From a virus (Duplodnaviria; Heunggongvirae; Uroviricota; Caudoviricetes): 31,164 nucleotides of DNA. The stretch's first letter is position 1. Every line of letters starts with the position of its first letter. Location: IMG/VR virus record IMGVR_UViG_2713896902_000001; one strand, written 5' to 3'. Made by a program: the position numbers and the translations under genes. The notes beneath the pieces were generated by a model, which worked only from the letters and a program-made list of their open reading frames with translations, made no database searches and was not told the DNA's origin. Below, in pieces: positions 609 through 17,085 of the stretch.

Positions 609-1148
609 TTACGCCTCCTCTTCTTCCTTCTTAATTCGCTGTACCGTCGAAGGAGCAACATTAAAGATCTCGGCGGTTTTACGCACTGACACGCCATCAG
701 AAAGGGCTTTCTTTATACCTTCTCTATCTACTGCCTTACCTTTACCACGCTTTGTAGGATTGACGGCTTGCGCTTCTCGTTTACGCTCTAACATCAGTTC
801 ACGTTCACACGTTGCAACTGCCGACAACATCGTAAGCATCATCTTTCCCATCGCGCTTGTAATGTCTGCAATGATCCCTTCTTTGTGAAATCGAACAATC
901 ACACCTCGATTATTAAGTTGTTCAACTAAAGCAAGGATATCTAAGGTGTTACGTCCTAAACGGTCGAGAGAGTGCACGTGTAAGGTGTCGCCTTCTCTCA
1001 GATAGGATAAACACGCCTGCAATCCTGGACGGTTAGTGTCTTTACCTGACAGCTTATCTTCAAAGACTTTATCAAGCGTTACTCCTGCAAGCTGGCGATC
1101 AGTGTTCTGATCTACAGTGCTCACACGCTTATAACCGATATTGCTCAT
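609..1148 (-). CDS. small serine recombinase (resolvase/invertase family)
   Basis: 179 aa; N-terminal MSNIGYKRVSTVDQ with catalytic-Ser context, DRLGR motif, C-terminal HTH (VSVRKTAEIFNVAPSTVQRIKK); size and layout match Hin/Tn3-resolvase-type recombinases. Confidence 0.85.
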   Translation of the reverse strand: MSNIGYKRVSTVDQNTDRQLAGVTLDKVFEDKLSGKDTNRPGLQACLSYLREGDTLHVHSLDRLGRNTLDILALVEQLNNRGVIVRFHKEGIIADITSAMGKMMLTMLSAVATCERELMLERKREAQAVNPTKRGKGKAVDREGIKKALSDGVSVRKTAEIFNVAPSTVQRIKKEEEEA

Positions 1149-1400
1149 AAAATCCTCTTAATGTATCGATTTGGCACTACTTCAATGCAAATGAGTATAT
1201 CGTATTCATTTGGTCTGTTTCAAGCCTTATGGGTACGGAATATTACACGATTTAGCTGTATTCATTTGGTATGCCTAATGGATACACAGGGGAATAGATT
1301 AAATGGTGTTCTGTTTATACAGGTTTATTTGTTAGATCAACAAGTTGGCATTTCTAAACAGATGTTTGAACGTTGCCAAATGTCTTGACAACACAAGAAA
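1149..1400. promoter_or_regulatory. candidate res-like recombinase site / control region upstream of the serine recombinase
   Basis: Direct repeat GTATTCATTTGGT twice (about 1199 and 1258) plus TGTTT..ACAG-type half-sites immediately 5' of the recombinase start; track ORFs 1161..1388(+) and 1332..1544(-) here look non-coding. Confidence 0.25.
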
Positions 1401-1419
1401 AGGGCTTGCTATGCCACGC

Positions 1420-1840
1420 ATTACACGAAATAAGGCTGTAAAAACAAAATAAATTTTAAAATTTGCACAAACAAGAAAACTCATTAAGAAACAAGCAGAA
1501 CATTTTTTAGCCAATAATTTCTGATGGTGCCCTGTAAGCCGCATTACACAAGGCTTTGCGAAAGTGATGTAAAAGTGAAGAAAGTAAGAATTGCATTTTT
1601 AAGCTACTTTTCACTGAATTTTTAGTAGGGAATTACACAGGAATAAGTTAGGGATATTCTATGATTTACACAGGGAATATAGGGGGATTATGGCACACAC
1701 ATAGAAAGACATTACACAGAGTGCTATGTGACAAATGGATGTAACGAGAGGTTACATTCAGCTATCTGAAATGCTCTCTGTAAGAAAGTTGGTAGTAACG
1801 GTAGGTCACTGTGAGCTAGGGGGTAGGTCACTGTGAACTA
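1420..1840. repeat. iteron-like direct repeats (TTACAC(A/G) x5; GGTAGGTCACTGTGA x2)
   Basis: TTACACAG-like copies near 1422, 1544, 1633, 1666, 1712; 15-bp GGTAGGTCACTGTGA at about 1800 and 1822 separated by 7 bp; no ORF of 60 aa or more on the track between 1544 and 3076. Confidence 0.45.
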
Positions 1841-1899
1841 CAATAAGACTATTAATAAAACTATATTAGATTATTAATTAGATCATAATAATAATATTC

Positions 1900-2340
1900 T
1901 TTATATATATGATCTTTTGCCTTCCGGCGTTAGCTTCACTCTCTGGCAAGCAGCCTTACTCCGCTACCTTTCGGGCTACGTTGGCTGGCCCGTTCCGCTC
2001 ACACCGAAAGCAAAGCGTTACTTTCTTCGTGTAACTATCGTTGGCGGTAACGCCCACGAAGAAATACTATTGCGCTGTGCGCAGTAAGAGTAATCACCTA
2101 ACCAATCATACTGATTGCTTATGTGTTAACTCTCTCTAACTCTTAATTACCCTCCTACATTTAATAACTCTGTTATTCTCTGTAGTCGTGTAATTACTCG
2201 AAGAGAGAGCGGCTAAAGCTCAATTACACTCTGCTTTCCTCGTGTAATTTCACTAAGCCTCAATACAATTCCACTTCCACATTCTGTAGTCGTGTAATTG
2301 TTTTCGGTGGAAAAGCCAGAGGCGACACCGAAAGAGAATT
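1900..2340. other. structured non-coding segment with repeated TCTGTAGTCGTGTAATT (x2), CGTGTAAT(T/C) variants and CACCGAAAG (x2)
   Basis: 17-bp exact direct repeat at about 2179-2195 and 2283-2299; hairpin TTCTTCGTG...CACGAAGAA near 2025-2065; GC-rich island inside AT-rich flanks. Confidence 0.35.
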
Positions 2341-2929
2341 CTGATCTTATTAATCTTATCTATCTTAGTTAATCTTCTTACTTTATCTTACTTATCTTAT
2401 CTACTTTATTATTAATAATAGCTTTATAAGCTCTCTGTGTAGCTCTATGACGCAAGAAACAGCATTCAGGAAGGGAATCACCTTAGAAAAGTGTTCTTTG
2501 CGTCATAATGTGTTTTATGAAGGATTCAGAGGTGTTTCATACCACAAGGTATAGAGGATACTTTTAATTAATTAAAAATAAGGGGTCTAAATGCTTCTCT
2601 AACAGCATTAAGCAGGGTAGGGAATGGAAACGCATTGCCTACACATATAAGCTCACTACAGGGCTTTACAGAGCGTTTTATAAAGTGACTCTCTATCTTA
2701 TATCTACCATCACCTTTTCATATACCTAACAAATACAAATTAAGCCCCTTAAATAAGCCTATGGCGAGCTAAACAGCCATTACATAAGGGAATGTATTGC
2801 TTTTATCAAAACCTCGTTAGAACGCGTTTTAGAGCGTTTTAGACAATAATGAAGAATAGCACCACACAGAAGAGCACGAATTGCTAAGACAAATTATAAC
2901 ATGCTGAAAAAGATCGATTTTTTTCGAAA

Positions 2930-2970
2930 AGGGTATTGACAAATGTTTCTTTATATGTAATAATAGGTAT
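2930..2970 (+). promoter_or_regulatory. sigma70-like promoter for the rightward operon (TTGACA -N17- TAATAA)
   Basis: gggtattgacaaatgtttctttatatgtaataatagg about 110 bp upstream of the 3076 start; a short hairpin + T-run (aagccgtcaggctt...tttttt) precedes the RBS. Confidence 0.3.
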
Positions 2971-3075
2971 TAGAGGGACAGAAAAACATTCTTCTCTAAA
3001 TAATCAAAATCAATGCACTTTGAAGCCGTCAGGCTTGCAAGGTGTTTTTTCTTTTAACTGAATAAGGAGTTTTTT

Positions 3076-3264
3076 ATGAAATGGTTTACACCGGAGCACG
3101 TCGTCTCGGCATTTAAAAAAGGTGAGTTATCTCGCCACCAAGTAGTAATGAATCGTAATATGGCAAGGAGTCGAGGCTATCCAGAGCGAGCAGCTTGCTT
3201 CAATGAAGCACTCAAGATTATTGATGAACTAAGAAAAAATGAAAAAGAATCTGAAACAGAGTAA
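3076..3264 (+). CDS. hypothetical small protein (62 aa)
   Basis: Track ORF; AAGGAG RBS 7 nt upstream; first gene after the promoter. Confidence 0.5.
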   Translation: MKWFTPEHVVSAFKKGELSRHQVVMNRNMARSRGYPERAACFNEALKIIDELRKNEKESETE

Positions 3265-3283
3265 AGAATAGAAGGAGAAAACT

Positions 3284-3454
3284 ATGAGCGAAACTACAGA
3301 AAAGAAAAGACAACCACGCACTTGCTTTCATATTCCTGATGAAGTATTTCAGGTGTTATTTAAAGAAGCCAGAAGTAGACGTATCACTGTCACAGATTAC
3401 ATTCTTGATATGTTGAAAAGAGAGGCTGAAACACTCTCAAATAAAAGCAAGTGA
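3284..3454 (+). CDS. hypothetical small protein (56 aa), possibly ribbon-helix-helix-like
   Basis: ATG at 3284 with GAAGGAG RBS; MSETTEKKRQPRTCFHIPDEVFQVLFKEARSRRITVTDYILDMLKREAETLSNKSK; below track cutoff. Confidence 0.4.
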   Translation: MSETTEKKRQPRTCFHIPDEVFQVLFKEARSRRITVTDYILDMLKREAETLSNKSK

Positions 3455-3507
3455 TTTTTATCACCATAGTAGCGCCATAGAGCGTGATTACATCAAGGAG
3501 ATTTTTA

Positions 3508-4065
3508 ATGATTAACCAACTAACTTTTACAAAACACTATGACACGTTTGATAATGTATCAAAGATTTATTCTGATAAATTCCCTCAAGGAAAAGATTTA
3601 GATCTATTACATATTGTGCTTTATTTTCGATTCCTTAGTTATCAGGAAAACAACCTTAATTGTTATGAAAGTCACGAAACATTAGCTAAGATTTTTAAGT
3701 CTTCATCGTCAACAATTAAACGTAAGATAAACGATCTTAAAGAGATGGGATTATTAGAAACATCCCCACATCCTGATCCGTATATTTCATCTTTGATTTA
3801 CAATGCTCTCCCTCTCACAGATGCACATATTACTCCCCCAGGAGAATCATCACTCTCTGATCTTTCTGAGGCAGAAGAAGCACAGGAACAACCTAAAGGC
3901 CATAAACAGCCTTCTTTTGATGTTCTTGATGATTGGGATGCGCCTTTGCCGTGGGAGACGGAAGAAACACCTGTTTCATCAAGTGAAAAGGTAGCTAATG
4001 ATAATGAGGCATATTTTTCTAAGCATTACCCAAATGTGTATGATGACTTTGATATTCCATTTTAA
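3508..4065 (+). CDS. HTH-type DNA-binding protein with acidic C-terminal tail; possible replication-initiation or regulatory protein
   Basis: Track ORF 3484..4065 (GTG); preferred start is ATG 3508 with AAGGAG RBS; winged-helix-like segment (ETLAKIFKSSSSTIKRKINDLKEMGLLE) then acidic tail; sits downstream of the iteron-rich region. Confidence 0.6.
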   Translation: MINQLTFTKHYDTFDNVSKIYSDKFPQGKDLDLLHIVLYFRFLSYQENNLNCYESHETLAKIFKSSSSTIKRKINDLKEMGLLETSPHPDPYISSLIYNALPLTDAHITPPGESSLSDLSEAEEAQEQPKGHKQPSFDVLDDWDAPLPWETEETPVSSSEKVANDNEAYFSKHYPNVYDDFDIPF

Positions 4066-4076
4066 TAAGGAGGGTT

Positions 4077-4355
4077 ATGATTCAATATTTAGTAAAAAAT
4101 CAAGTAGACAGAATTCAGTGTAATGACACAGGAAAACGCATCTACGAAACACTTGCTTACCTCTATAAAGGAAAGCCAACACCGCTAAAATATAGCGATG
4201 TGTTACACCGAGCAGGGTGCTCTGAAGATGGTTTAAAATTCTGGCTGAAACAGCTATCAAATTTCGGTGTTATAGAGATTAAAGAATTATCTTTCTCTAC
4301 ATTCAATCTCAAAAGACTAAATAGAGAAATAGACTTCATCTATTCCACTCTCTAA
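4077..4355 (+). CDS. hypothetical small protein, possible HTH regulator (92 aa)
   Basis: Track ORF; TAAGGAGGG RBS directly upstream. Confidence 0.6.
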   Translation: MIQYLVKNQVDRIQCNDTGKRIYETLAYLYKGKPTPLKYSDVLHRAGCSEDGLKFWLKQLSNFGVIEIKELSFSTFNLKRLNREIDFIYSTL

Positions 4356-4484
4356 AATCTCTCTATGTAATTAAAATATAAAAGGAAAACATTATTATGA
4401 TAGTAGCTATGTATTGGTTATTGTTCTTTCTCACGTTAGAAACATATTTCGGGGTGTTTTCCTTTAAAAGAAAAGGAAAAATAA

Positions 4485-4895
4485 ATGGCAAAAAGAAAAA
4501 ACAACGTTGTTAAGAAGATCGGTGATTCAGCTTCTCTTCTAAGTAAACCTAAATCTATTCTAAGACGTAAAGACTTTAAAGAGCTAGTTACGCTCACCAA
4601 GCATAATAGCGCCCCTGGCGAATGGAAAACAGAGATCATAGAACATTCTCCCTCTGTGCCTTGTGGAGATGAATTTAACGCCTTACAAGAAATCTTATCT
4701 TCAACACCTGGCGTATTCTGGAAGCCTAGAAAAAGAAAAGAGTATATCGTTGATAGCTCTGATTTACGCAAATACCAGATTTTAGGATTTGAAGACTATA
4801 ACCACTACGTCGGTTATCTCGCCACCAATGGCCTAAATAATTTAGTTCCTGAATTCCAAATTCTAGATAATGCTGATCACTATGGAGACTTTTAA
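4485..4895 (+). CDS. hypothetical protein with basic N-terminus (136 aa); small-terminase-like or DNA-binding role is a guess
   Basis: Track ORF; N-terminal MAKRKNNVVKKIG...KSILRRK is strongly basic; antisense track ORF 4436..4771 judged spurious. Confidence 0.6.
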   Translation: MAKRKNNVVKKIGDSASLLSKPKSILRRKDFKELVTLTKHNSAPGEWKTEIIEHSPSVPCGDEFNALQEILSSTPGVFWKPRKRKEYIVDSSDLRKYQILGFEDYNHYVGYLATNGLNNLVPEFQILDNADHYGDF

Positions 4896-4896
4896 T

Positions 4897-5232
4897 ATGA
4901 ACAACACGTATGATACAATTTATTCACTAATTAATTATTATGAGGATGATTACCTCCTGCCTTTAAACCGTGCTGAACTTGAAGCATATAAAGAAAACAC
5001 ACCATCGGCACTAAATGAGGCGTTTAAACACTGGGATTTAGCTGTGAATGCCTTTGAGCACCTCTCTAAGCGTGTAGAGATGCTCTGCAAGCGCGAAAAC
5101 GCATATCTGACAGCCTCTCAGGTATGGGATCTATCAAACTGGATAGAAGATATCGAAGCTGATGTTCGCTATGTAGGAGACGGACTTGTTGAACTAGCTC
5201 AACGCTTAGGCGCTACTATCACAGAAGAATAA
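4897..5232 (+). CDS. hypothetical acidic protein (111 aa)
   Basis: Track ORF 4870..5232; start placed at ATG 4897 just after the upstream stop (same frame as the track ORF). Confidence 0.55.
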   Translation: MNNTYDTIYSLINYYEDDYLLPLNRAELEAYKENTPSALNEAFKHWDLAVNAFEHLSKRVEMLCKRENAYLTASQVWDLSNWIEDIEADVRYVGDGLVELAQRLGATITEE

Positions 5233-5254
5233 AAAAAGCAACAAAAAAGTTGTA

Positions 5255-5560
5255 AAATATCTTGACATTTCATATATTGTATGTTAATATAATTATATGG
5301 GGTGATTATTTTTCCTTTATTGGTTCGATATTAAAAATTCTTCTTGTCGTTAAAGGGGAGTAAAATCTCCGCTCCCCGCTTCTCCTCCTTAAGTAAATAC
5401 TGTGTCATTATTACCTCTTTTTTCCTTTGTTATGCATACATCTTGGAGTGTGCATAACATAGGGTAATTACAAAGGCGGCTTTAAATGCTGCCTTTTATT
5501 TTGCCCGTTATGCAACTTAAAAGTTGTATTTCTTACTTTAAACAAGGTAACAAGGTTTAT
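5255..5560 (+). promoter_or_regulatory. structured leader with promoter-like TTGACA-N17-TAATAT and several hairpins upstream of the structural-type genes
   Basis: cttgacatttcatatattgtatgttaatat; hairpins GGGGAGtaaaatctccgCTCCCC, GTTATGCATACA...TGTGCATAAC, AAAGGCGGCtttaaatGCTGCCTTT followed by a T-run. Confidence 0.3.
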
Positions 5561-5564
5561 ATAA

Positions 5565-5777
5565 ATGTTGTTTTTAAACGATAAAGAGCAAATCATCAAG
5601 TATCGAGATGAAATGCTGCGAATTACTCCACAAATTACCGAAATGGTAGCTAAATACGCTGGGTGTTCTGTCGAAGAAGTAGAAAGATGTGTTGAAAAAT
5701 ATTTTTCTCCTTCTTCTCCGTCTACACCTTCCCTTAATGAATTAATCAAATTAAAAGCTAAGGAGATTACTAAATGA
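5565..5777 (+). CDS. hypothetical small protein (70 aa)
   Basis: Track ORF; weak RBS; stop overlaps the start of the next gene. Confidence 0.45.
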   Translation: MLFLNDKEQIIKYRDEMLRITPQITEMVAKYAGCSVEEVERCVEKYFSPSSPSTPSLNELIKLKAKEITK

Positions 5778-6136
5778 TTATTGATTTAGACACTCTGTTT
5801 CCAGTTCGAAAGACTTTCACAGATATTGTAAGTTATTGTACTGATCCGTTTGCCTCTGTAGAAAGCAAGGTTTTTGCTTCTCTTCCTGCTGATGTTGAGT
5901 GCGGAGACTTGATCACCAGCACGGGCGCTAAATATGAATCAGGAGATGATGTCTATGTTGTTATGAGTGAGTTTGTAACGGCTGGAGACAACAAGCCTGT
6001 AGATATTTTACGTAGCAATGCTGGGCTTGTATGCATCAAAGCTGATGCCCTGAATGCTGTAAGTGAAGCAGCAAAAACAGCATTAATTAAAAAAGGCTTC
6101 CAGCTTGAAGGCTTTAATACGGTTTTCACTTCTTAA
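5774..6136 (+). CDS. hypothetical protein (120 aa), possibly a head-decoration-like protein
   Basis: Track ORF; AAGGAG RBS; size, composition and position immediately 5' of the capsid-like gene recall lambda D-type decoration proteins; assignment by context only. Confidence 0.55.
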   Translation: MIIDLDTLFPVRKTFTDIVSYCTDPFASVESKVFASLPADVECGDLITSTGAKYESGDDVYVVMSEFVTAGDNKPVDILRSNAGLVCIKADALNAVSEAAKTALIKKGFQLEGFNTVFTS

Positions 6137-6154
6137 TAAAAGGAATAATAATAA

Positions 6155-7183
6155 ATGATTCTAGGTAATGATTACGTTGATTTAGCTCCGCTTTTCCAGG
6201 CTCATAGCACTAGAAATTATCTGCTTTCTACTCTCGACTTCACTGATCCGGTGGGCGTTAGTTCTCATAAAGTAGCTGTTTCCCAGCTTGTCGAAAGCAA
6301 CGAATCTCTCTTTAACAAAGAAACCTCTCGTTTCTCTTCTGAACACAATGTTACTAAGCGAGAACAAGGTAAAGAATGGCTGATTGAAATCCCGTATTTT
6401 CTTCGTGAGGATGTGATTCGTCCTTCTGATGTTCAAGGCAAGCGTAAGCCTGGCACTGATTTTCAGGAAACACTCACTGATATTTATGCTGAGTATGTTG
6501 CTAAACACCACGTAGCGTATCAGCGTACAAAAGAGAGCGTATTGGCTGCTTCTTTGTTCTCTGGCAAAACTTACACACCGAAAACTGATGATGTGTTAAT
6601 TGAGTGGGGCAAGCTGTTTAACGTATCAGCTATGAAAGCCACTGTGAACGCTTCCAGCACTGACACCACGAAGATTTTTAAAGAATTTGATCAGATTGCT
6701 ACTAACATTTTTGAAATCACACAAAGCCAGGCGTCAGCGGTAGAAAGAATTGTTGTTTTCTGTAAGCCGGAAGCCTTCTCTGCAATTCGATTCTCTGCGG
6801 GTATGGCAAACGCATTCCAGTATGTAAGCCCACTGGAAGAGGGGAATGTTGTGTACCAGCGTCGTGACCTGCTGCCAGGAGTGACAGCGTTCACTATTCC
6901 AGGAACTAACATTGATGTTGTTAAACTGGTAGATCCGCTACACCTTGCACATATGACCGCTGACGCTGTAGCTGTTCCGAAGTTTGCTAAAGGCTCTAAT
7001 GTATATCAGAACATCTACGGGGCTGCTTCCAGCACCTTTGAACTGATTAATGCCGCTCCTGCTGAGGTGTACAGCTATAGCTATGAATCTTCTCGTGGTG
7101 ATGCTGTTAACGTTGTTACAGAGAATAGCCAGATGGTTGTAAACCACGGTGTAGGCTTCTCCGTTCAAATCACTGTTAAATAA
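6155..7183 (+). CDS. putative major capsid-like structural protein (342 aa)
   Basis: Track ORF; Ala/Ser/Thr/Val-rich, Cys-poor composition; followed by a strong intrinsic terminator; preceded by a decoration-like gene; about the size of lambda E-type capsid proteins; no search run. Confidence 0.6.
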   Translation: MILGNDYVDLAPLFQAHSTRNYLLSTLDFTDPVGVSSHKVAVSQLVESNESLFNKETSRFSSEHNVTKREQGKEWLIEIPYFLREDVIRPSDVQGKRKPGTDFQETLTDIYAEYVAKHHVAYQRTKESVLAASLFSGKTYTPKTDDVLIEWGKLFNVSAMKATVNASSTDTTKIFKEFDQIATNIFEITQSQASAVERIVVFCKPEAFSAIRFSAGMANAFQYVSPLEEGNVVYQRRDLLPGVTAFTIPGTNIDVVKLVDPLHLAHMTADAVAVPKFAKGSNVYQNIYGAASSTFELINAAPAEVYSYSYESSRGDAVNVVTENSQMVVNHGVGFSVQITVK

Positions 7184-7196
7184 TATTTAACGTGTA

Positions 7197-7236
7197 ATAG
7201 AGGCGTGGCGTGTATTCACGCTTCGCCTTTTTTTAT
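7197..7236 (+). terminator. Rho-independent terminator after the capsid-like gene
   Basis: gaggcgtggcgtgtattcacgcttcgcc stem followed by tttttttatttatttttt. Confidence 0.6.
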
Positions 7237-7268
7237 TTATTTTTTAAATTTTGAGAGGTGATTAAAAT

Positions 7269-7472
7269 ATGGAAGTGATTCTGAAATCAAAAAATGGTGT
7301 ACACGTACATTTAGATGCTAATGATTCTAGAGGCTTGTTAAATCTGAAATATCTATGTTCTCTCTTAGATGTGCCATATGAAGGAGTAAAAGCCCGTATG
7401 TTCAGATTAAACGAGAGTATTGATCAGGCTCTACACCATTTCTTAAGCAAAGAAGGTGGTAAAAATGATTAA
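7269..7472 (+). CDS. hypothetical small protein (67 aa)
   Basis: Track ORF; GAGAGGTGA RBS. Confidence 0.45.
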   Translation: MEVILKSKNGVHVHLDANDSRGLLNLKYLCSLLDVPYEGVKARMFRLNESIDQALHHFLSKEGGKND

Positions 7473-7486
7473 TAAGGGGATTTTAA

Positions 7487-9331
7487 ATGTTAGAAATTAA
7501 CACTTCTAAAATTAAGAACACAGTTACATTTAGTGTAGATAAAGACAGCTTGAAAAAAGCGAAAGACTCTATTACAGGCTTAAAGGAATTCGCAGAGAAC
7601 ATCAAGCCAGCTAAATTAAGGTTTGATAATGTCACTAAAGGCTATAAGAAAGCACAAAACGAAGTAGACAAGATTGCTCAACAGAAAGCTAAAACAGAAA
7701 AGCAGAATCAAAGAGCACAAGCTGCCGCAGCAAGAGCACAGGCAAGGCAACAGGCACAAATAGCAGCACGTAAAGAGAAAGCAGAATTAAAACTTCTCGA
7801 TGTGTCAAGCTCTATCAGTGCAATGCACCGCCTCTCTGTAGCGGAACAATACAAAGCTATTGCACAGGCTAGAGAGATAGCAAAACAATATGAGCAAGGG
7901 GCTATCTCGCTTGCACGTATGAATAGCCAAATGAAACGCTTACAACAACAACAACGTAAGATTAATGGCAACAGAAAAGCTCAATTTGCCCCCGTTAAAG
8001 GAGGATCAGGGAATTCCGCCACTATGGGCGCTCTGTTATTTGGAGGCGCTACAGCGGCGGCTGGCGTGATGGCTGTAAGCAAAGCCTCTGATTTTGTTAC
8101 TAGCAGCTTCGCTAACGCAGAGACGCAAGGGGAGCTAATTCAACGGGCCAAGCTGGGCGGTGTAGACGTTAACCAGATGTATAATATTACAGAATGGGCG
8201 TATAGAAACGGCGTTGACTCTATGATGGGTGATCAAGGTGCTAGGAAATACCTGGATCAGATGAAAGATGTTAGGGAACGTGCCGCAAAATCCTATAGTG
8301 AAGCTGAATTAGTGAAAGATAAGAAAACCGGAAAATCAGGGAAATGGAAAGGCGGTGATAACGCTATTAATGAACTTCTAAACATCGGTGTTATTAACAA
8401 AAGCGACCTTAAAAAATTTGCTGATAATCCAGCCGGATTAATTTCTAAGGCTGTTAATGGAATGATGAAAAAAGGGTTTTCAGACTCCCAAATTGGACAA
8501 CGTTTAGAAGACCTGGGCGATGATTTGATGCTTACGTCAAAATATTGGCAACGTTCCGTTAAAGATGTACAAGAAAGTATTAATCAGCAAAAAGCCTCTG
8601 GAAAATGGCTAACAGAAACACAGCAAGAATCTATCGTTAAATTCAGAGAACTAAACAGACAGCTTTCACAGCTTTCTGATGCAAGGCAAGTAGCATTCGT
8701 AGACGGCTTTATGAAATCTCTCGATCCAAAAGTAACGGAAGAGTTTATGAAAAACCTTTCTAATCTCACTCCGTATTTTACGAAGCTGGGAGAAGCTGCA
8801 GGAAGTCTCTTTGAGGCCATTATGAAGATTGTAAACTGGTTTAATCGTAATGATGATAAGACAGATGCTATTCAGAAAAATTTAGGTGATGCACCGCCAT
8901 TAAGCAATGATGGAATGAAACAGCATCTTTCTAATCTCGTTCCTGATCAATATAAAGGCGCTGGCACTGCAACAACTACACCTGATAATAGTCATTCTCT
9001 CTTTAACACGATTAAGGGATTGCTTTTCGATGATAATGCTTCTTCTGTATCAGATGTAAAAATGTCAGTCAGCGAAGCACCGATAACCAATCTCAAACAG
9101 GGTGCTTTAAATAATCTTGCAATGACAACTCCGGCTTATAATTTATCTCCTGTGTTTAATCTGAATCCAACGTTTGAAGTGGTAACAGAGGTTCCTCTTA
9201 CTATTAATTCTGACACATCCAGATTAAGCGATTATGTGGATTTTACAGCGAGAGCAAGTCGGGATAGCTTCTTGAAATCATTAACATTAACCAGCTTATC
9301 AGGACAATCTAACGGCGGGGACCCGCCATAA
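7487..9331 (+). CDS. large coiled-coil protein with a Gly/Ala-rich hydrophobic segment (614 aa); virion-internal, tape-measure-like or ejection-like protein
   Basis: Track ORF; AAGGGGA RBS; N-terminal Ala/Gln/Lys-rich heptad-like region (QKAKTEKQNQRAQAAAARAQARQQAQIAARKEK), hydrophobic GGSGNSATMGALLFGGATAAAGVMAV; antisense Cys-rich ORF 7708..7971 is a mirror artefact of the Ala/Gln codons. Confidence 0.7.
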   Translation: MLEINTSKIKNTVTFSVDKDSLKKAKDSITGLKEFAENIKPAKLRFDNVTKGYKKAQNEVDKIAQQKAKTEKQNQRAQAAAARAQARQQAQIAARKEKAELKLLDVSSSISAMHRLSVAEQYKAIAQAREIAKQYEQGAISLARMNSQMKRLQQQQRKINGNRKAQFAPVKGGSGNSATMGALLFGGATAAAGVMAVSKASDFVTSSFANAETQGELIQRAKLGGVDVNQMYNITEWAYRNGVDSMMGDQGARKYLDQMKDVRERAAKSYSEAELVKDKKTGKSGKWKGGDNAINELLNIGVINKSDLKKFADNPAGLISKAVNGMMKKGFSDSQIGQRLEDLGDDLMLTSKYWQRSVKDVQESINQQKASGKWLTETQQESIVKFRELNRQLSQLSDARQVAFVDGFMKSLDPKVTEEFMKNLSNLTPYFTKLGEAAGSLFEAIMKIVNWFNRNDDKTDAIQKNLGDAPPLSNDGMKQHLSNLVPDQYKGAGTATTTPDNSHSLFNTIKGLLFDDNASSVSDVKMSVSEAPITNLKQGALNNLAMTTPAYNLSPVFNLNPTFEVVTEVPLTINSDTSRLSDYVDFTARASRDSFLKSLTLTSLSGQSNGGDPP

Positions 9332-9352
9332 CATTACAAGGAAATTATTATT

Positions 9353-10066
9353 ATGGCGACCGCCGGGATTTTAACCATACGTGCAGCAAATACTCCAGAA
9401 CAACACGTTCAGGCTGTTTACAAAGCAGAACAAGATATAAACTCTACAAAAAACGAAAATAGCAAAGCTAATAAAACAAAAGGAGAGAACGGATTTGCTA
9501 TTGTTACCAGTGGACTGGCATCTTCTGGTAATGATGTTTATGAAAATTATATGGCACTGGCCTTTGATAGTGTTGACGATGTGAACGTGAGACGTTCGGC
9601 AGATGTCACAAGCTACCCCGTAGAAAATGGTGCTACTGTGTCTGATCACGTTCAAATTAAAAACAATAAGTTCTCTCTTAAAGGGCGTATCTCTGAAACA
9701 CCGATTAAAAGCGATCCTGGCTTGTTAAAGAGTGCAGGGGTGAACGGGAACAGAAGATCATTGGCTATTGATTATCTGAATCAGATTATGGACAGTAGAC
9801 AGCCTTTTCTTCTTGTTACAGAAAATAAAACTTTTGAGAACGTTGTTTTAACAGGCATCGAATACACAGAAGAGGCAAGCGAATCCCTGGTATTTGATCT
9901 TAGCTTTGAGCAGATCAGGCTCGTTTCGTATGGCACTGTAAACACTGTAGCTATCAAAACACAGCCATCTAAGAACATCGGGGCTAATATGAAAAAACGT
10001 GTTAACACTGAAAAACCAAGTAGTGAAGGTGAAGACACTATTACTCCTGCCTTTAAACAGGAATAG
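9353..10066 (+). CDS. hypothetical protein (237 aa), possibly structural
   Basis: Track ORF; AAGGA RBS; last gene of the rightward operon. Confidence 0.65.
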   Translation: MATAGILTIRAANTPEQHVQAVYKAEQDINSTKNENSKANKTKGENGFAIVTSGLASSGNDVYENYMALAFDSVDDVNVRRSADVTSYPVENGATVSDHVQIKNNKFSLKGRISETPIKSDPGLLKSAGVNGNRRSLAIDYLNQIMDSRQPFLLVTENKTFENVVLTGIEYTEEASESLVFDLSFEQIRLVSYGTVNTVAIKTQPSKNIGANMKKRVNTEKPSSEGEDTITPAFKQE

Positions 10067-10104
10067 CCGTAAATGCCTCTAAAACGCTCTGTAACGATGT
10101 AATT

Positions 10105-10140
10105 ATAAAAGAGGCTACCAACTATGTTGAATCCTCTTTA
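10105..10140. terminator. hairpin between convergent genes (bidirectional terminator candidate)
   Basis: TAAAAGAGGctaccaactatgttgaatCCTCTTTA between the 9353..10066 gene and the minus-strand integrase. Confidence 0.4.
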
Positions 10141-10146
10141 TTGCGT

Positions 10147-11481
10147 CTATGACGTTGTTTTACGCCTTAAATTTGATTTTTTATTGATTGATAAGCCTTT
10201 CTCTATTTCAGGGTAGCGTAGAAGCTCAATATATTTTTTAAGCTCTACTGGAGAAGCTGCATTCTTGCTATATGTGCGGAATGTTTCTGTATTGCCGCGT
10301 GTATGGCCCAGGAGAAGGGCGATCCTGTCTTCTGGAATTTGATTTCGATCAAGAAGCTGTGCTACTCCGTGTCTCAGAGAATGAAACACTTTCCTTTCTG
10401 TTCCCTTTTCCCCTAAAGCCTTTCGTTTAGCTCTTGTAAATCTCTGCGTGTGCCACGTGGAACGTTTACCATCAGCACGCTCTGTAATGCTGGCGTGATA
10501 GAACAAAAAGCCATTATGAGGCTTTTCACGCAGCGACAACACCAACGGAGTGATAAGGCTATGCACAGGAACAAGACGTGCCGCAGCTTTCGTTTTTCCC
10601 TGTGTGATTTCAAAACACAGCACACCTTCGATCTCTTTCACATCGTCTATTGTGAGACTTGCTATCTCATTGATCCGCATACCTGTATAAGCACCGATAA
10701 GACACAAAGCCATCATTTCTTTGTTTTCTGCTGAATCACCGGAAAATACTTGCAACACCTGCAATAGCTCTTTGTTAGAAAATGCCTCATAGCTCTCTCT
10801 ACTTTGTGCCACATCAAGCCTATGCCCTCGCCAGGGGGAGAGCGCCCTTTCTGGCGCATCGTGGTAACGTGATGAAGCTAACTCCCATAGCTGGGCCATT
10901 GGGCTGATATAATTTGCAATTGATTGTTGTGAAAGGGTTTTTTGCATGTGTTCTATCCAGCCTGTAACAGTGGTGCGGCTTACATCTTGCAATGCAATAT
11001 CAGGCTTTTTACGGTAGGAGAGAAACATCTCTACCGCTTTTCTTGCCTTAGCTAAAGTGGCTGGCTTCTTCTTCGTGCTGTTAATTGTCAGGTAGATTTC
11101 AAGAATTTTAAGCAATGACGGACACGAAGACGCTGTATCTTGCATTCTGGTAGCTGTTTTGGCGTATTTAGCCTTACTGCGTAACAGTTCCAGCGTGTTC
11201 TCTATTGTGCTGTTTACAGGAGCGACACTCTCGCGTAAGCAATGGTATTCATCTGCAATCTGATCACGCTTTCTACGTGCAACACGAAGGTTACTTGTAT
11301 GCAGACTCCTGACAAACGTCCTTTTTCCTTCAAAAAAGGGCTGCATATACACAGGCAGCGTGATCCTTAAATAGTAGTTACCGTAAGAATCACAGATTAT
11401 GTATTGATTGGGCTTGTATCTCATAAACTCCCCGGCTAAAGTGTCGGAGCGTTTGTAATGTGAAAATTGATTGTAACGCAT
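10147..11481 (-). CDS. int: tyrosine recombinase / phage-type integrase (444 aa)
   Basis: C-terminal catalytic signature: R in GMRINEI, HSLRHG (H-x-x-R), LLGH, Y in TFRTYSK; N-terminal arm-binding-like region. Confidence 0.85.
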   Translation of the reverse strand: MRYNQFSHYKRSDTLAGEFMRYKPNQYIICDSYGNYYLRITLPVYMQPFFEGKRTFVRSLHTSNLRVARRKRDQIADEYHCLRESVAPVNSTIENTLELLRSKAKYAKTATRMQDTASSCPSLLKILEIYLTINSTKKKPATLAKARKAVEMFLSYRKKPDIALQDVSRTTVTGWIEHMQKTLSQQSIANYISPMAQLWELASSRYHDAPERALSPWRGHRLDVAQSRESYEAFSNKELLQVLQVFSGDSAENKEMMALCLIGAYTGMRINEIASLTIDDVKEIEGVLCFEITQGKTKAAARLVPVHSLITPLVLSLREKPHNGFLFYHASITERADGKRSTWHTQRFTRAKRKALGEKGTERKVFHSLRHGVAQLLDRNQIPEDRIALLLGHTRGNTETFRTYSKNAASPVELKKYIELLRYPEIEKGLSINKKSNLRRKTTS

Positions 11482-11751: not shown

Positions 11752-12966
11752 GTGAAACTCAATGCCCGTCAAATAGACACAGCCAAGCCAAAAGAGAAGG
11801 CTTACAAGCTGGCCGATGGTGGCGGTTTGTATCTCTTGGTAAAACCTAATGGAGGTAAATACTGGCGACTTAAATATCGTGTAGCTGGTAAAGAGAAGCT
11901 ATTGGCACTAGGTGTGTATCCTGAGGTTACTCTAGCCGATGCTCGGGCAAAACGTGAAGATGCGAAAAGAGGTATCGCTGGTGGTATCGATCCGATGGAA
12001 GCGAAACGAGAGGAAAAGATTGCCCGGGAAACGCAGTTAAACAACACCTTCAAAGATATTGCCCTTGAGTGGCACAGCAGCAAATTAAAAAAATGGTCTG
12101 CTGGTTATGCTTCAGACATCCTCGAAGCCTTCAACAAAGATGTGTTCCCTTACATTGGCAAAAAACCAATCGCCGAAATCAAACCACTTGAACTTCTGAA
12201 TGTGCTGCGGCGCATCGAGGGGCGCGGTGCGACAGAAAAAGCCAAAAAAGTGAGGCAGCGGTGCGGGGAAGTTTTCCGCTATGCAATAGTCACTGGTCGC
12301 GCAGAGTATAACCCTGCACCAGACCTTACTAGCGCGATGCAAGGCCATGAATCTAATCATTACCCTTTCCTTACGACCAAAGAATTACCTGATTTTTTCA
12401 AGGCATTGTCCAGTTACTCAGGAAGCGCATTGGTTGTTATGGCGGCTCGTCTACTGATTATCACCGGCTTGCGAACTGGCGAACTACGTGGCGCATTATG
12501 GGATGAAATTGATTTCAACAAGGCTATATGGGAGATACCCGCTTCACGTATGAAAATGCGGCGGCCTCATATTGTGCCATTGTCTGAGCAGGCTCTTTCG
12601 CTTATTGGGAAGATTAGAGAAATAACAGGCAATTACCCTCTTATGTTTCCCGGGCGCAATGATCCAAGGAAAACAATGAGTGAGGCCAGCATAAACCAAG
12701 TGTTTAAGCGCATTGGCTACGCTGGACGTGTAACTGGTCATGGGTTCCGGCACACTATGAGTACGATTTTGCATGAGCAGGGCTATAACACTGCGTGGAT
12801 AGAAACACAGCTCGCTCACGTTGATAAGAACTCAATTCGTGGCACATACAACCATGCGCAATATCTGGATGGAAGGCGGGAGATGCTTCAATGGTATGCC
12901 GACTATATGGATGCGCTGGAGAAGGAGGAGAACGTTGTTCATGGTTCGTTTGGGAAACGAGCTTGA
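11752..12966 (+). CDS. int: P4-type tyrosine integrase (404 aa)
   Basis: GTG start with GGAGGT RBS; N-terminal arm-binding domain motif GGGLYLLVKPNGGKYWRLKYR; C-terminal catalytic residues (GLRTGEL, HGFRHT, Y in RGTYNH). Confidence 0.9.
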   Translation: MKLNARQIDTAKPKEKAYKLADGGGLYLLVKPNGGKYWRLKYRVAGKEKLLALGVYPEVTLADARAKREDAKRGIAGGIDPMEAKREEKIARETQLNNTFKDIALEWHSSKLKKWSAGYASDILEAFNKDVFPYIGKKPIAEIKPLELLNVLRRIEGRGATEKAKKVRQRCGEVFRYAIVTGRAEYNPAPDLTSAMQGHESNHYPFLTTKELPDFFKALSSYSGSALVVMAARLLIITGLRTGELRGALWDEIDFNKAIWEIPASRMKMRRPHIVPLSEQALSLIGKIREITGNYPLMFPGRNDPRKTMSEASINQVFKRIGYAGRVTGHGFRHTMSTILHEQGYNTAWIETQLAHVDKNSIRGTYNHAQYLDGRREMLQWYADYMDALEKEENVVHGSFGKRA

Positions 12967-13100
12967 CTGTATGAATAGACAGTGTCAAGCAATGGTAGTA
13001 GACTTATGTAGACGAACAAAGAATAGGCTATGTCTAGGCTGATCCCCGAAAACCCGTACACCCCTACGGGCTGGCATAGCCGTCAGAATTAGGGGCGCGG
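12967..13100. other. nested hairpin structures downstream of int (terminator or structured RNA/att-like element)
   Basis: GCTTGACtgtatgaatagacagtGTCAAGC, then GGCTATG...CCCGTAcacccctACGGG...CATAGCC nested stems. Confidence 0.3.
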
Positions 13101-13108
13101 GGTGGCGT

Positions 13109-13990
13109 ATGGTGAGAGCCAAAAAACAAGATTTAGCATGGTTTGATATTAATAATTATGAATTTTTAAATGATTTAACCTTGCCGGACTTGATTCAAGA
13201 ATTAGAGTGGCGTGATTTTTTATTGCGTCATGCAAAAGATGACACTGCTATATTCAAAGAAGAGTACGATATAAAATATGAAAGAATTTTTTCGGGCGAT
13301 CCTAACCTAACCATTCTCAATGAAGAAGAGGAAGAGGTTGAAGAATTTATTCGCAAAGTAAATGATGAAGCCCCATCATTAAGAAATGAGTACGATGATC
13401 TTCCCTCATTATCTTCAGCTATGGGGGTTAGTCCAGTAACATTTTCAGAGCTGGCTATGTACTCTTTCTCATCGATAGATCAAGGCTTTTTTAAAAGAGA
13501 CGAAGAGGATTGCTACCTCAAGGCAAACGCTATGCTTGCGAGTGTTACTGGAAACCTAAGTAATTGTTCCCCTAACATCATACTCGTTTCTATAGATTTA
13601 GATGACGCCACTGATGACGAAATTATTACCAGCCTGACTCACCTTCTACCTCTATGGCGAAAAGAGTTAAAAGTACCAGAGAGAGAGCATGTCGCTCAGA
13701 AAAGGATTGGATTAAAGACCCTCCAGAAGTTGATATCTAATAGAGTGATACCTATTGTTGATCTGCTGATTTGGGGTGAGAAGTCAGGTAAGGAAGTGAG
13801 CAATCCGATGATTTCTGCCTTGGTTTTTAGTGATGATCCGAAAGATACGCAGGCTATTAAGGAATCAATAAAGCCTTTTGCACTTGAATCCATAAGCGAG
13901 AGATACACCCGCTTGCTTCAGCTTTATGTAAACAAAGACAGAGAAATGAGCTTGATAAAAATATCTGATTTAATGAGTAGAGATTTATAG
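13109..13990 (+). CDS. hypothetical protein (293 aa), AT-rich cargo gene between int and alpA
   Basis: Track ORF; visibly lower GC than flanking int and alpA; acidic runs (NEEEEEVEEF, DLDDATDDEI); no recognisable catalytic motif by eye. Confidence 0.7.
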   Translation: MVRAKKQDLAWFDINNYEFLNDLTLPDLIQELEWRDFLLRHAKDDTAIFKEEYDIKYERIFSGDPNLTILNEEEEEVEEFIRKVNDEAPSLRNEYDDLPSLSSAMGVSPVTFSELAMYSFSSIDQGFFKRDEEDCYLKANAMLASVTGNLSNCSPNIILVSIDLDDATDDEIITSLTHLLPLWRKELKVPEREHVAQKRIGLKTLQKLISNRVIPIVDLLIWGEKSGKEVSNPMISALVFSDDPKDTQAIKESIKPFALESISERYTRLLQLYVNKDREMSLIKISDLMSRDL

Positions 13991-14034
13991 CAAGCAAAAT
14001 CCTACGTAAACGTTTTAAGTAAATTTCGCGATTT

Positions 14035-14069
14035 CCGCTTTGAATACGCTACTGTGTATTTCAAAGCGG
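14035..14069. promoter_or_regulatory. perfect 10-bp inverted repeat CCGCTTTGAA / TTCAAAGCGG (operator or terminator) between the cargo gene and alpA
   Basis: Read directly; not followed by a clear T-run, so operator favoured over terminator. Confidence 0.3.
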
Positions 14070-14187
14070 ATAATCTTCTCAAAAAAATATTTTATTTTTA
14101 TCCGCTATCACCCACTCACCTGTTTGTTTAATCTCCTTTCTGTCTACTGATGTCCATTAAAGAAGATGACAGAATATAGGAGTAAAC

Positions 14188-14385
14188 ATGTCTCAATCAT
14201 TTATTCGTCTTTCTGAGGTTCAACGCCGTACTGGTTACAGCAAAGCGTGGATTTATCGGCTCATCAAAGAACAGCGATTCCCTCAATCTGTAAAGATTGG
14301 AAGCCGATCAATTGCGTTTATTGAAAGTGAAATTGAAGAATGGATTAATCAGCGCATCGCTGAGTCGCGTGGCGAGGTAGCGTAA
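14188..14385 (+). CDS. alpA: AlpA/Vis-family phage transcriptional regulator (65 aa)
   Basis: HTH pattern LSEVQRRTGYSKAWIYRLIKEQRFP...IESEIEEWINQR typical of AlpA-family proteins; position after int as in P4-like and PICI-like islands. Confidence 0.85.
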   Translation: MSQSFIRLSEVQRRTGYSKAWIYRLIKEQRFPQSVKIGSRSIAFIESEIEEWINQRIAESRGEVA

Positions 14386-14816
14386 TGAATAAGAAAAACC
14401 GCCCATTACAGGCGGCTAATTCAGATATTCGCGTATCTGATGTTACGCCCCTTACAAAATCCCTTCAAGCACCAAAGCGCACACCGAAAAAGCATCGTGC
14501 CAGAGTCTATATGCTGCGTACTGGTATAGAGGGATGGACAGAAAATGACATTCTTCGCTACTGCCGTCTGTCTTCTGGTCGTAACTATGCAACAGAGTTA
14601 GAACGCCAGCTTGGAATCACTCTGGAGCGTATCGACGAAAAGAATCCTGATGGTATCGGAACACACCTTCGCTACCGTTTCTCCTGCCGTGGTGATGTTC
14701 TGAAAGTGATCACTCATGTTAACCATCTTGCGAACATAAATGATCACAACGGACTTTCTCAGCAGGAAATTGCCGACATTCTGAAACTCTACCCGGACGC
14801 GTTTAACGCCGCCTAA
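14385..14816 (+). CDS. hypothetical protein (143 aa)
   Basis: Track ORF; ATG overlaps the alpA stop (translational coupling). Confidence 0.6.
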   Translation: MNKKNRPLQAANSDIRVSDVTPLTKSLQAPKRTPKKHRARVYMLRTGIEGWTENDILRYCRLSSGRNYATELERQLGITLERIDEKNPDGIGTHLRYRFSCRGDVLKVITHVNHLANINDHNGLSQQEIADILKLYPDAFNAA

Positions 14817-14828
14817 CGGAGACTGAAA

Positions 14829-15662: not shown

Positions 15663-15837
15663 GCCGACAGGAACACCACAACCTCAAAAACGCTACAAAG
15701 ATGCCCACGGAGCACTCGTTACTGTCGAAAGCGTGTCTCACAACCGAGTGACGTTTTATCGCGACGGGTATCAATCGCCATGCGTACAACCGCTGGCGCG
15801 CTTCATGAAGGAGTTCGCGGAGGTTAACAAATGCTAA
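15655..15837 (+). CDS. hypothetical small protein (60 aa)
   Basis: ATG 15655 with GGAGG RBS overlapping the upstream stop; internal start of track ORF 15568..15837. Confidence 0.4.
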   Translation: MFKPTGTPQPQKRYKDAHGALVTVESVSHNRVTFYRDGYQSPCVQPLARFMKEFAEVNKC

Positions 15838-16898: not shown

Positions 16899-17085
16899 CT
16901 CAATTAATGCCCCTCGACTTACGTCCGCACTTCAATTAATCGAGCAAGCAGCGGCTGTCCTGGTTGCTGTCAGTCTTTCGGCTGAAGAAATGGACGCTGC
17001 TGATGTCGTGGATGCGATTAAAGCGTGCTCATCTTTGGTTAACGATGCTCGTGCAGAGCTGGTAATTCTTGGGGGTGAAAAATGA
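16891..17085 (+). CDS. hypothetical small protein (64 aa)
   Basis: Internal ATG of track ORF 16834..17085; ATGAATAA overlap with the upstream stop. Confidence 0.5.
   Translation: MNNSINAPRLTSALQLIEQAAAVLVAVSLSAEEMDAADVVDAIKACSSLVNDARAELVILGGEK

Follow-up and report, generated by a model that had tools for sequence, protein, structure and literature searches.

The 31,164 nucleotides of the IMG/VR virus record IMGVR_UViG_2713896902_000001 (hereafter the window, which means this whole stretch of DNA) contain, between a small serine recombinase gene and a rightward operon of small genes, a region of about 1.7 kb that is free of longer open reading frames (ORFs) and dense in repeats and potential hairpins. 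Which function does such a region have? An earlier note on this DNA had offered a replication origin, a packaging site or a locus for a structured non-coding RNA (ncRNA) as candidates, and had treated the repeats as one feature. They are in fact spread over at least five different parts. Judged from the comparison of homologous loci, the region is probably the cis-acting control centre of an integrative and apparently undescribed phage-satellite-like island, and its core an iteron-type replication origin. The window is E. coli chromosomal sequence with a 98.6% identical locus in strain FORC_042, where the island of approximately 11-12 kb is inserted at the tRNA-Thr gene thrW and adjoins proA.

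Direct repeats, A+T-rich run and initiator-like protein

The reading as an origin builds on the following features:

1800 to 1836, plus strand: iterons, two copies of the 15-mer GGTAGGTCACTGTGA (1800-1814 and 1822-1836), 22 bp from start to start
1837 to 1914: A+T-rich run, candidate DNA-unwinding element, with GATC at 1881 and 1911
3508 to 4065, plus strand: gene for an initiator-like protein of 185 amino acids, third gene of the operon, with a winged-helix N-terminus, an acidic linker and the C-terminal end ...YDDFDIPF

Phased direct repeats and an adjoining A+T-rich unwinding element are marks of an iteron-type (theta) origin, and both were found. The A+T-richest 60-mer of the region (92%, start at 1850) begins 14 bp past the last repeat. 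In other E. coli loci, the number of iteron copies varies from 1 to 5 and their spacing from 22 to 24 bp. The same layout recurs across genera with different repeat sequences, in the order of two to five direct repeats (about two helical turns apart), an A+T-rich run with GATC and a G+C-richer conserved segment. At the same place of the A+T-rich run, repeats similar to TATTAGATCA occur in Citrobacter and Dryocola.

A further mark is a cognate initiator that is encoded by the element and matched in specificity to the repeats, and the protein encoded at 3508-4065 appears to be such an initiator. Pfam assigned it to HTH_36/DUF6945, and a profile search with it retrieved only E. coli entries named 'transcriptional regulator'. 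In the PHROG database, 12 of 13 variants of this protein matched lambda-O-like, DnaD-like or other replication-initiator families (best E value 1e-15), and the top matches were all replication initiators; two of the 13 variants also matched families of unknown function, and none a terminase family. The C-terminal tail D-(I/L/C)-P-F is present in the versions from E. coli, Enterobacter, Dryocola and Sodalis, and in the window it reads DDFDIPF, which is close to the hexapeptide DDDIPF of SSB (single-stranded DNA-binding protein). The gene is the sole strongly variable one nearby, with best local identities falling to about 30%. Its neighbours g1 and g4 are mostly 85-98% identical among the E. 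coli loci, while the N-terminus of the initiator-like protein is swapped in a modular manner between several unrelated-looking winged-helix types.

The N-terminal types were tabulated against the repeats in 65 distinct loci, the repeat type being that of the array adjoining the A+T-rich run:

Type A: proximal repeat GGTAGGTCAC, 12 of 12 loci (A-a)
Type B: proximal repeat AGGAAATGAGTTCC, 4 of 4 loci (B-d)
Type C: proximal repeat CCCCTATCA, 12 of 12 loci (C-c), including Enterobacter-type proteins of other genera that are only 70% identical
Type D: proximal repeat ACAGAATTCTGTTA, in E. coli, Citrobacter and Dryocola
Type F: proximal repeat CATCAAAATGATG, four loci (F-f), and one more locus with the GGTGTCAA type

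No cross pair of repeat and N-terminus occurs in the 65 loci. The GGTAGGTCACTGTGA repeat type stands beside the A+T-rich run only together with a type A N-terminus, and more divergent N-termini have repeat types of their own. In mosaic loci, leftover arrays of other types lie distally and the matching array proximally. Since the stretch from the repeats to the gene is highly conserved, recombination should break the pairs of repeat and protein unless these are selected. An origin and its initiator would be expected to co-vary in this way, and our inference of replication activity rests mainly on this finding. Of the functions suggested earlier, the origin is the one that the comparative evidence favours, by the iterons, the A+T-rich run and the co-variation of the iterons with the DNA-binding domain of an initiator-like protein; that the centre of the stretch is a replication origin appears likely.

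Several points weigh against an origin of this kind. Between 1150 and 3075, neither a DnaA box (TT[AT]TNCACA) nor a site for the integration host factor IHF (WATCAANNNNTTR) was found, two DnaA-like sites with one mismatch each being all that was detected, and an origin with no consensus site for either protein would be unusual among enterobacterial iteron origins. Only two iterons are present in the window and just one in some relatives. Initiator gene and repeats are physically linked at a distance of 1.7 kb, which inflates the association counts, and part of the association could reflect inheritance rather than selection. The SSB-like tail is absent from the initiators of Klebsiella, Citrobacter and Cronobacter. 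The protein of the window is a short allele, in which a C-terminal segment of about 45 amino acids (EDVLENFASLIIQEK...RPNGI) is missing in comparison to most alleles (229-230 amino acids; an example with the full segment is encoded at 5135-5827 of locus L003), and this copy may be impaired. Public records name the protein 'transcriptional regulator', and its Pfam match is just a helix-turn-helix (HTH) domain. In the literature library that was searched, both for satellites of phages of the T5 or rV5 type and for an island at thrW, no paper on this island came up. Finally, the role that the conserved segment following the A+T-rich run (the module described below) would have in the origin is a guess.

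The initiator copy of locus L002 is annotated as frameshifted, and some islands may hold a defective replicon. In an Enterobacter locus (L027, 4804-7563) and a Serratia locus (L029, 3690-7637), unrelated proteins of 308 and 497 amino acids, respectively, replace the initiator. Iterons and core module are gone together with the initiator gene in both, which suggests that whole replicon modules are exchanged within this island family.

Repeats and coding capacity of the region

All repeats and further features that had been listed for the region were recovered by sequence reading and with a repeat finder. The motif TTACAC(A/G), in the following TTACACR, occurs on the plus strand at 1421, 1544, 1633, 1666 and 1712; four more copies on the minus strand (2028, 2187, 2241 and 2291) had been overlooked. 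Thus, 9 of the 16 copies in the window lie inside this 1.7 kb, with 0.45 expected, and none of 5000 first-order Markov resamples reached nine. An interpretation of TTACACR as DnaA box was dropped, the best copy (ATTTACACA) having one mismatch and the others two or three. It was also rejected as a motif of the whole family, because the right-hand copies are merely arms of hairpins and other genera read TTGCAC/GTGCAA or differ altogether at the equivalent positions. The exact 17-mer TCTGTAGTCGTGTAATT occupies 2179-2195 and again 2283-2299, and 76% of it recurs in a copy at 2233. The repeat (A)CACCGAAAG is found at 2001-2010 and 2325-2334, and the arms of a long imperfect hairpin at 2446-2461 and 2492-2507 (16 nucleotides, 88% complementary). 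The G+C-rich core within A+T-rich flanks was likewise found, with a G+C content of 0.50 at 1901-2100 versus approximately 0.33 in the flanks. A change of sign in the GC skew at about 1850 was not used as evidence, as it is due to the C-rich plus strand of the core and not to replication bias.

No ORF of 60 or more amino acids lies between 1545 and 3075, and a 70-codon ORF on the minus strand (1332-1544) overlaps the left edge of the interval 1390-3075 that the earlier note had delimited. In the RefSeq annotation of the 98.6% identical locus, no gene is placed between the recombinase gene and the first small gene, and no tRNA or tmRNA gene was detected in the region. Conserved small protein genes would have spoken against a cis-acting region; none of 13 small ORFs is kept in the homologues, where they are truncated, contain in-frame stop codons or are absent outside E. 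coli. The first gene of the operon (3076-3264), in comparison, is kept at a coverage of at least 85% in every locus tested. For the loci of Citrobacter and K. aerogenes, a 74-codon ORF is called on the minus strand of the core; it has no counterpart in the window. Homologues free of the repeats would also have spoken against a cis-acting region, and what the actual homologues show is a layout that is kept with the repeat sequences themselves swapped. Among the E. coli variants, 1497-1670 and 2660-3100 are always conserved and the middle is a mosaic, with repeat type and copy number varying at about 1764-1870. Where the ORF-free region matches the genome of one bovine E. coli strain (NZ_AP042515.1, 302920-306295), the annotation shows a transposase gene of IS1414.

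The hairpin-rich module

The A+T-rich run is followed by a conserved module of about 430 bp and, in the window, by an insert:

1915 to 2345, minus strand: conserved hairpin-rich module, kept across genera with compensatory changes
2022 to 2031 with 2055 to 2064: helix closing a three-way junction, read from the sequence by eye
2072 to 2082: invariant GCGC-TGT-GCGC
2103 to 2117: hairpin
2130 to 2209: long hairpin
2211 to 2259: hairpin GGCTAAAG...TAAGCC
2302 to 2333: hairpin TTTCGGTG/CACCGAAA
2315 to 2322: GCCAGAGG block
2345 to 2600: lineage-specific insert with A+T-rich repeats of the ATCTTA type (2344-2408) and the long imperfect hairpin (2446-2507)

Alignment with homologous elements, which the earlier note had recommended, revealed blocks of the module that are conserved across genera, namely CCGCTCA, the invariant GCGCTGTGCGC, GGCTAAAG...TTCACTAAGCC and GCCAGAGG. 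The insert is present only in E. coli loci of this core type and is missing in three of the loci (L006-L008); in the other genera, the right block follows directly after the GCCAGAGG block. Both 17-mers, both CACCGAAAG copies and the four minus-strand TTACACR copies fall within the module, some of them as arms of hairpins. 3' arms are formed by the 17-mer of 2179-2195 and by TTACACR at 2241-2247 (partner arm AATTACAC at 2222-2229); CACCGAAAG at 2326-2334 and TTACACR at 2187 are arms as well. For the second 17-mer (2283-2299), which includes the TTACACR copy at 2291, no pairing partner was identified within the module.

Folding of 1915-2345 was far better than that of dinucleotide shuffles (z = -5.4 for the plus and -7.8 for the minus strand). 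With a pattern derived from one of the hairpins, 14 viral and 80 metagenomic stretches were retrieved, which yielded 37 distinct homologous sequences. In an alignment of 27 sequences, 89% of the cells in the segment equivalent to 2098-2261 are paired versus 81% in shuffles, a value reached by none of 500 shuffles; nine pairs are changed on both sides, and slid controls gave 27-47%. Entire helices are exchanged for other complementary sequences; one of them, for example, reads CTCTCTCT/AGAGAGAG in E. coli, CTCTACCT/AGGTAGAG in the Enterobacter type and CTGACT/AGTCAG in the Klebsiella type. If the minus strand folds, the ratio of G.U to A.C is 73:27. This asymmetry is a lean towards the minus strand and not a proof, because the structure itself was derived on the minus-strand alignment.

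Strand-specific conserved hairpins near an origin are expected of a single-strand initiation or primosome-assembly site, and the module has such hairpins and abuts the A+T-rich run. It is lost exactly in those two loci in which an unrelated gene replaces the initiator and was therefore treated as part of the replicon. Most simply, though this is a guess from the sequence, the module could serve as single-strand initiation or primosome-assembly site beside the unwinding element.

The main rival is a structured RNA. The module might be an ncRNA gene read leftward from the minus strand, which gives rise to a primer similar to RNA II of ColE1 or to an immunity or regulatory RNA, instead of or alongside a role as single-stranded DNA. 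The strongly non-random folding, the compensatory changes in several helices and the G.U to A.C ratio given above are all consistent with an RNA. Furthermore, tetraloops similar to GNRA (GTAA, GTGA) cap some of the hairpins, and a P4-like neighbour element in the same window uses small RNAs. However, the Infernal/Rfam scan that had been proposed returned no family in the region at the gathering score (Rfam 15), and at E values up to 10 it gave three chance-level matches of 13-18 bits versus thresholds of 42-100. E. coli, Enterobacter, Citrobacter and Klebsiella have no conserved sigma-70 promoter, on whichever strand, and no conserved terminator for the module, and promoter-like matches over the module are no commoner than in shuffles. 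The joint loss with the initiator gene ties the module to the replicon, and the strand asymmetry is biased in the way described. An RNA gene thus has a minor chance. Of the ncRNA locus suggested earlier, there remain a leader hairpin with U-run in front of the operon (see below) and the covarying module; an Rfam family and a conserved promoter for the module are what it lacks.

Proposed initiation and likeness to known replicons

If the core is a replication origin, initiation might proceed as follows. The lambda-O/DnaD-like winged-helix protein would bind the direct repeats at 1800-1836 and thereby open the adjoining A+T-rich run. Opening would expose the module, whose hairpins, probably formed by the single-stranded minus strand, could act as the site at which replication proteins of the host enter or prime. 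Domains of a helicase, primase or loader were not recognised in the initiator-like protein and the region has no consensus DnaA box, so that the SSB-like tail DDFDIPF is proposed to recruit a host factor that binds SSB, for example PriA, DnaG or the chi subunit. The C-terminal motif DDDIPF of SSB is described as contact to DnaG and many other partners (PMC5872125). The confidence in these host partners is much lower than that in the origin.

With ori-lambda and the O protein, the island has in common the order of direct repeats, which a winged-helix N-terminus of an O-like protein is proposed to bind, and A+T-rich run, and also a C-terminal part which would recruit the helicase-loading machinery; the PHROG matches of the 12 variants include the 'replication initiation O-like' families. 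Unlike in lambda, where the origin lies inside the gene, that of the island would be placed 1.7 kb upstream of the gene for the initiator, within an ORF-free region. In addition, a P-like partner was not recognised, the initiator ends in an SSB-like tail, and a conserved hairpin module of 430 bp follows the A+T-rich run.

Staphylococcus aureus pathogenicity islands (SaPIs) and other phage-inducible chromosomal islands (PICIs) reportedly, according to Ubeda et al., encode their own initiator and have iterons flanking or adjoining an A+T-rich run, with initiator and iteron types swapped as matched pairs. The island resembles them in its satellite-encoded initiator, the iterons by an A+T-rich run and the swapping of matched pairs between otherwise similar islands. 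PICI initiators, however, possess primase or helicase domains, whereas that of the island consists of a DNA-binding domain, a linker and a tail.

In oriR of P1, a GATC-containing A+T-rich region adjoins the iterons, as it does in the island. In oriR of R1, a hairpin (G-site) a few hundred bp downstream of the initiator-binding site is an initiation site on single-stranded DNA, at which primase starts the leading strand. The hairpin-forming module near the presumed initiator-binding site is alike in layout, with no similarity of sequence being claimed, and is about four times longer. In contrast to both plasmid origins, no DnaA boxes were found in the island.

All in all, the island is an ordinary kind of element. 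Unusual in it are the minimal form of the initiator and its SSB-like tail, the lack of DnaA boxes, the long hairpin module with its covariation and the T5-type motif. If the core claim alone holds, the region is the ordinary origin of a mobile element. An origin located together with its matching initiator would provide a direct way to ask whether and when the island replicates and which phage helps, and an initiator with an SSB tail would, if true, represent a novel means by which a mobile element exploits the replication apparatus of its host.

Packaging, regulation and inversion

Could the repeats and the module be a packaging (pac/cos) site, with the winged-helix protein as a small-terminase-like factor that passes the DNA to the terminase of a helper? 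The island has capsid and tail genes and no terminase, and a signal for packaging must therefore exist at some place in it. An N-terminal winged helix is also what small terminases use to bind repeat arrays, and a motif of the island is common to the terminal-repeat region of T5-like phages. On the other hand, the PHROG matches of the protein are almost all to families of replication initiators and helicase loaders and in no case to terminases, an A+T-rich run with GATC beside phased repeats is the signature of an origin, and a tail of the SSB type suggests contacts to replication proteins. In the phage collection that was searched with blastn, neither the repeats nor the core were found. A packaging site is hence improbable.

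A purely regulatory region with no function in replication has an equally small chance; the repeat arrays would then be operators, to which the winged-helix protein binds as a transcription factor. The database label quoted above fits this explanation, as do the best solved relatives of the domain, which include regulators of the MarR, FadR and Lrp types, and the promoter, leader terminator and further palindromes of the region. However, DnaD is among the solved relatives too, and 12 of the 13 variants have matches to families of phage initiators. The arrays are found beside an A+T-rich run and 1.1 kb upstream of the sole conserved promoter, and two to five direct repeats at a phasing of 22 bp are a rare form for operators.

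An invertible phase-variable switch, flipped by the adjoining Hin- or Fim-type recombinase, was rejected as very improbable, because the core faces the same way with respect to the capsid gene in 53 of 53 loci, no minus-strand or inverted segment occurs in about 20 E. coli loci and two loci (L003 and L006) have no recombinase gene at all. In its favour it had been counted that a small serine or tyrosine recombinase always adjoins the region and that TTACACR copies face each other across the centre. Moreover, in the tyrosine-recombinase loci L007 (2006 and 4118) and L023 (3646 and 6040), a site similar to ATGATCATTTTCA lies by the recombinase gene and an inverted copy about 20 bp upstream of the -35 box of the main promoter. 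This inverted 13-mer pair brackets the whole gap in these two loci, and no such pair was found for the serine type.

Promoter, leader and T5-type motif of the right flank

To the right of the putative origin, the following features precede the operon:

2796 to 2845, plus strand: motif common to T5-like phages, TCAAAACCTCGTTAGAACGCGTTTTAGAGCGTTTTAGAC..., with a degenerate second copy at 2649-2680
2936 to 2964, plus strand: main rightward promoter, TTGACA, 17 bp, AATAAT, extended TG, 11 of 12 consensus positions
2966 to 3062, plus strand: transcribed leader with a terminator-like hairpin (3015-3045) and U-run (3045-3054), ahead of the gene at 3076

A perfect TTGACA occurs at the same place in Enterobacter, Citrobacter and Klebsiella, and this is the sole promoter conserved across genera. 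The hairpin at 3015-3045 is the second one of the leader. It was predicted by RNAalifold from 10 loci to have 13 pairs, four of them with compensatory changes, and is followed by TTTTTCTTTT. From its sequence, hairpin plus U-run is a predicted attenuator or the end of a short RNA before the first gene, and the terminator could gate the operon. The sequence TGAAAAAGATCGAT (approximately 2905-2918) and TGAAAAATGATCAA at the same place in locus L008 appear, by eye, to be related to the ATGATCATTTTCA-like site.

Of the whole region, nothing but the motif at 2796-2845 had matches to phages in blastn. On its own, it matched 345 phage records, and among the best 25 nearly all are genomes of 107-115 kb. 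In KPN4 (91.5% over 46 bp) and TrudiGerster, both Demerecviridae, it lies in an ORF-free region beside pre-early genes (A1 and A2 are annotated in TrudiGerster), and the match in TrudiGerster adjoins a pair of DnaA boxes. In T5 (AY587007), 19 of 20 bases agree at 6196-6215, a position which overlaps the annotated 'inverted repeat B'' (IRB') of Repeat Region 2, upstream of the pre-early promoter T5P4. The untranslated repeats of the first-step-transfer DNA of T5-like phages have been described, their function being unproven (Davison, bioRxiv 10.1101/866236). Related copies of the motif are found at the same relative place in the islands of other genera.

In the island as in the T5-like repeat regions, this motif of about 50 bp lies roughly 100-150 bp upstream of a strong promoter. 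It is all that they have in common, as paired DnaA boxes and the other T5 repeats are missing from the island, and the capsid and tape-measure-like proteins of the island are not T5-like. The motif may be a sign of regulatory cross-talk with such phages and could couple expression of the operon to them. Since the tape-measure-like protein is nearest to those of rV5-like myophages, a T5-like phage is just one candidate for the helper. In any case, the shared motif is a handle on the unexplained untranslated repeats of T5-like phages.

A more far-reaching combination of these elements is doubtful. According to it, the island would belong to an undescribed family of enterobacterial satellites with a DnaA-free origin, at which a swappable winged helix and a mimic of the SSB tail bring the restart primosome or primase to the hairpin module, and its promoter would be wired to T5-like phages by the copy of IRB'. 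If the latter is true, the satellite would switch on with the pre-early programme of its helper.

Recombinase and candidate recombination sites of the left flank

The left flank contains the following features:

609 to 1148, minus strand: small serine recombinase gene (179 amino acids, Pfam Resolvase domain and HTH), left border of the ORF-free region
1194 to 1286: candidate res-like recombination sites, overlapping the recombinase promoter
1201 to 1237: imperfect palindrome CGTATTCAT...ATGGGTACG, 37 bp
1223 to 1194, minus strand: promoter-like site, overlapping the palindromes
1257 to 1286: imperfect palindrome TGTATTCAT...ATGGATACA, 30 bp
1310 to 1362: palindrome TTGGCA...TGCCAA, 82-85% identical in Enterobacter loci and visible in Cronobacter and Dryocola
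1497 to 1760: left conserved block with the hairpin AAGCC (1536-1540)/GGCTT (1552-1556), four plus-strand TTACACR copies and the palindrome GTAAC-N5-GTTAC (1741-1755)

The best solved relatives of the serine recombinase are the gamma-delta and Tn3 resolvases (1e-28), followed by the Gin invertase (3e-27). The imperfect palindromes, which include a direct repeat of GTATTCATTTGG at 1202 and 1258, are candidate recombination sites of the adjacent recombinase by analogy to res of Tn3 and gamma-delta, where the gene of the closest relative is likewise preceded by imperfect palindromes at unequal spacing with an overlapping promoter. Res of Tn3 has three subsites, whereas the island has just two clear sites and a weaker match to a half-site at 1162; furthermore, invertases score almost as well, and in most genera a small tyrosine recombinase replaces the serine recombinase. 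These enzymes of 183-205 amino acids, which show a weak likeness to Xer and Fim enzymes, are encoded at the same position in other genera and in the E. coli locus L007. As serine and tyrosine recombinases interchange at the same place, they might share a task such as dimer resolution, and multimer resolution of a replicating circle is the simplest reading of the left-flank system.

The left block is conserved in all E. coli variants, and its core CTGTAAGCC...GGCTT..AAGTG can also be made out in Enterobacter, Citrobacter, Cronobacter and Klebsiella. Its part 1533-1570 (GTAAGCC-GCATTACACA-AGGCTTTGCGAAAGTG) resembles the leader terminator at 3015-3050 (GAAGCC-GTCA-GGCTTGCAAGGTG) in the same orientation, and in Enterobacter both have GGTTT for GGCTT. 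An element may have been duplicated here, or the two may be partners in pairing.

Two arrays of short direct repeats, one of the GGTATTTAAGG type and one of the ATAAATAGC/CTAAATACC type, lie left of the recombinase gene at 300-510 of the window. Similar arrays are found inside the gap in loci with a tyrosine recombinase (L007, 2060-2330; L023, 3680-3980; L029, 3820-3880). They may be arm-type sites of an integrase or other protein-binding arrays.

Gene content and distribution of the island

Outside the ORF-free region, the island and the element next to it contain the following genes:

from 3076, plus strand: rightward operon of small genes, part of the island
3076 to 3264: first operon gene g1
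4077 to 4355: operon gene g4
6155 to 7183: gene for a capsid-E-like protein (Pfam/PHROG)
within 7487 to 10066: gene for a tape-measure-like protein of 614 amino acids (tape-measure PHROG match) and, right after it, one for a Dit-like tail protein
10147 to 11481: gene for a DUF6538 tyrosine integrase
11752 to 12966: integrase gene of the P4-like element
13027 to 13094: int-alpA RNA of the P4-like element
16212 to 16289: isrK of the P4-like element
16352 to 16439: C4 antisense RNA of the P4-like element
18858 to 21617: ORF of 919 amino acids of the P4-like element, of which the size alone suggests a P4 primase

Island genes are annotated as hypothetical in public records. Pfam and PHROG scans of the proteins encoded at 609-11481 recognised only the resolvase, the HTH_36 initiator-like protein, the capsid-E-like, tape-measure-like and Dit-like proteins and the integrase. 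No hallmark of P4-like elements (alpha primase with sid, psu and delta), PICIs (alpA with pri-rep) or capsid-forming PICIs (cfPICIs; portal, protease and terminase) was detected in these scans; the P4-like hallmarks belong to the separate element that follows from 11752. The island thus differs from all three groups, with alpA and pri-rep lacking and neither portal nor terminase recognised. The best phage relatives of the tape-measure-like protein are rV5-like myophages (Phapecoctavirus, Justusliebigvirus; 34-36% identity), and the capsid protein shows a distant likeness to those of Pseudomonas myophages. Genes for tail length and baseplate hub on a satellite are unusual.

Sequences similar to the region occur in 756 of 5426 complete E. 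coli genomes (14%), including that of the O104:H4 strain 2011C-3493. By capsid homologues (38-97% identity), the same island type was found in Citrobacter, Klebsiella, Enterobacter, Cronobacter, Dryocola, Sodalis and Serratia, so that at least seven enterobacterial genera besides E. coli carry it and the island is prevalent in E. coli and several other clinical genera. E. coli and all seven other genera have an ORF-poor gap of 1.1-2 kb between the operon and a small recombinase gene.

The P4-like element follows in tandem at 11752-31164 of the window, and two satellite-like elements hence abut at thrW. In two further loci (L004 and L005), shortened copies lie beside thiM instead of thrW. They comprise recombinase gene, gap and first genes, with the operon stopping after the initiator gene, and look like remnants or a second insertion site.

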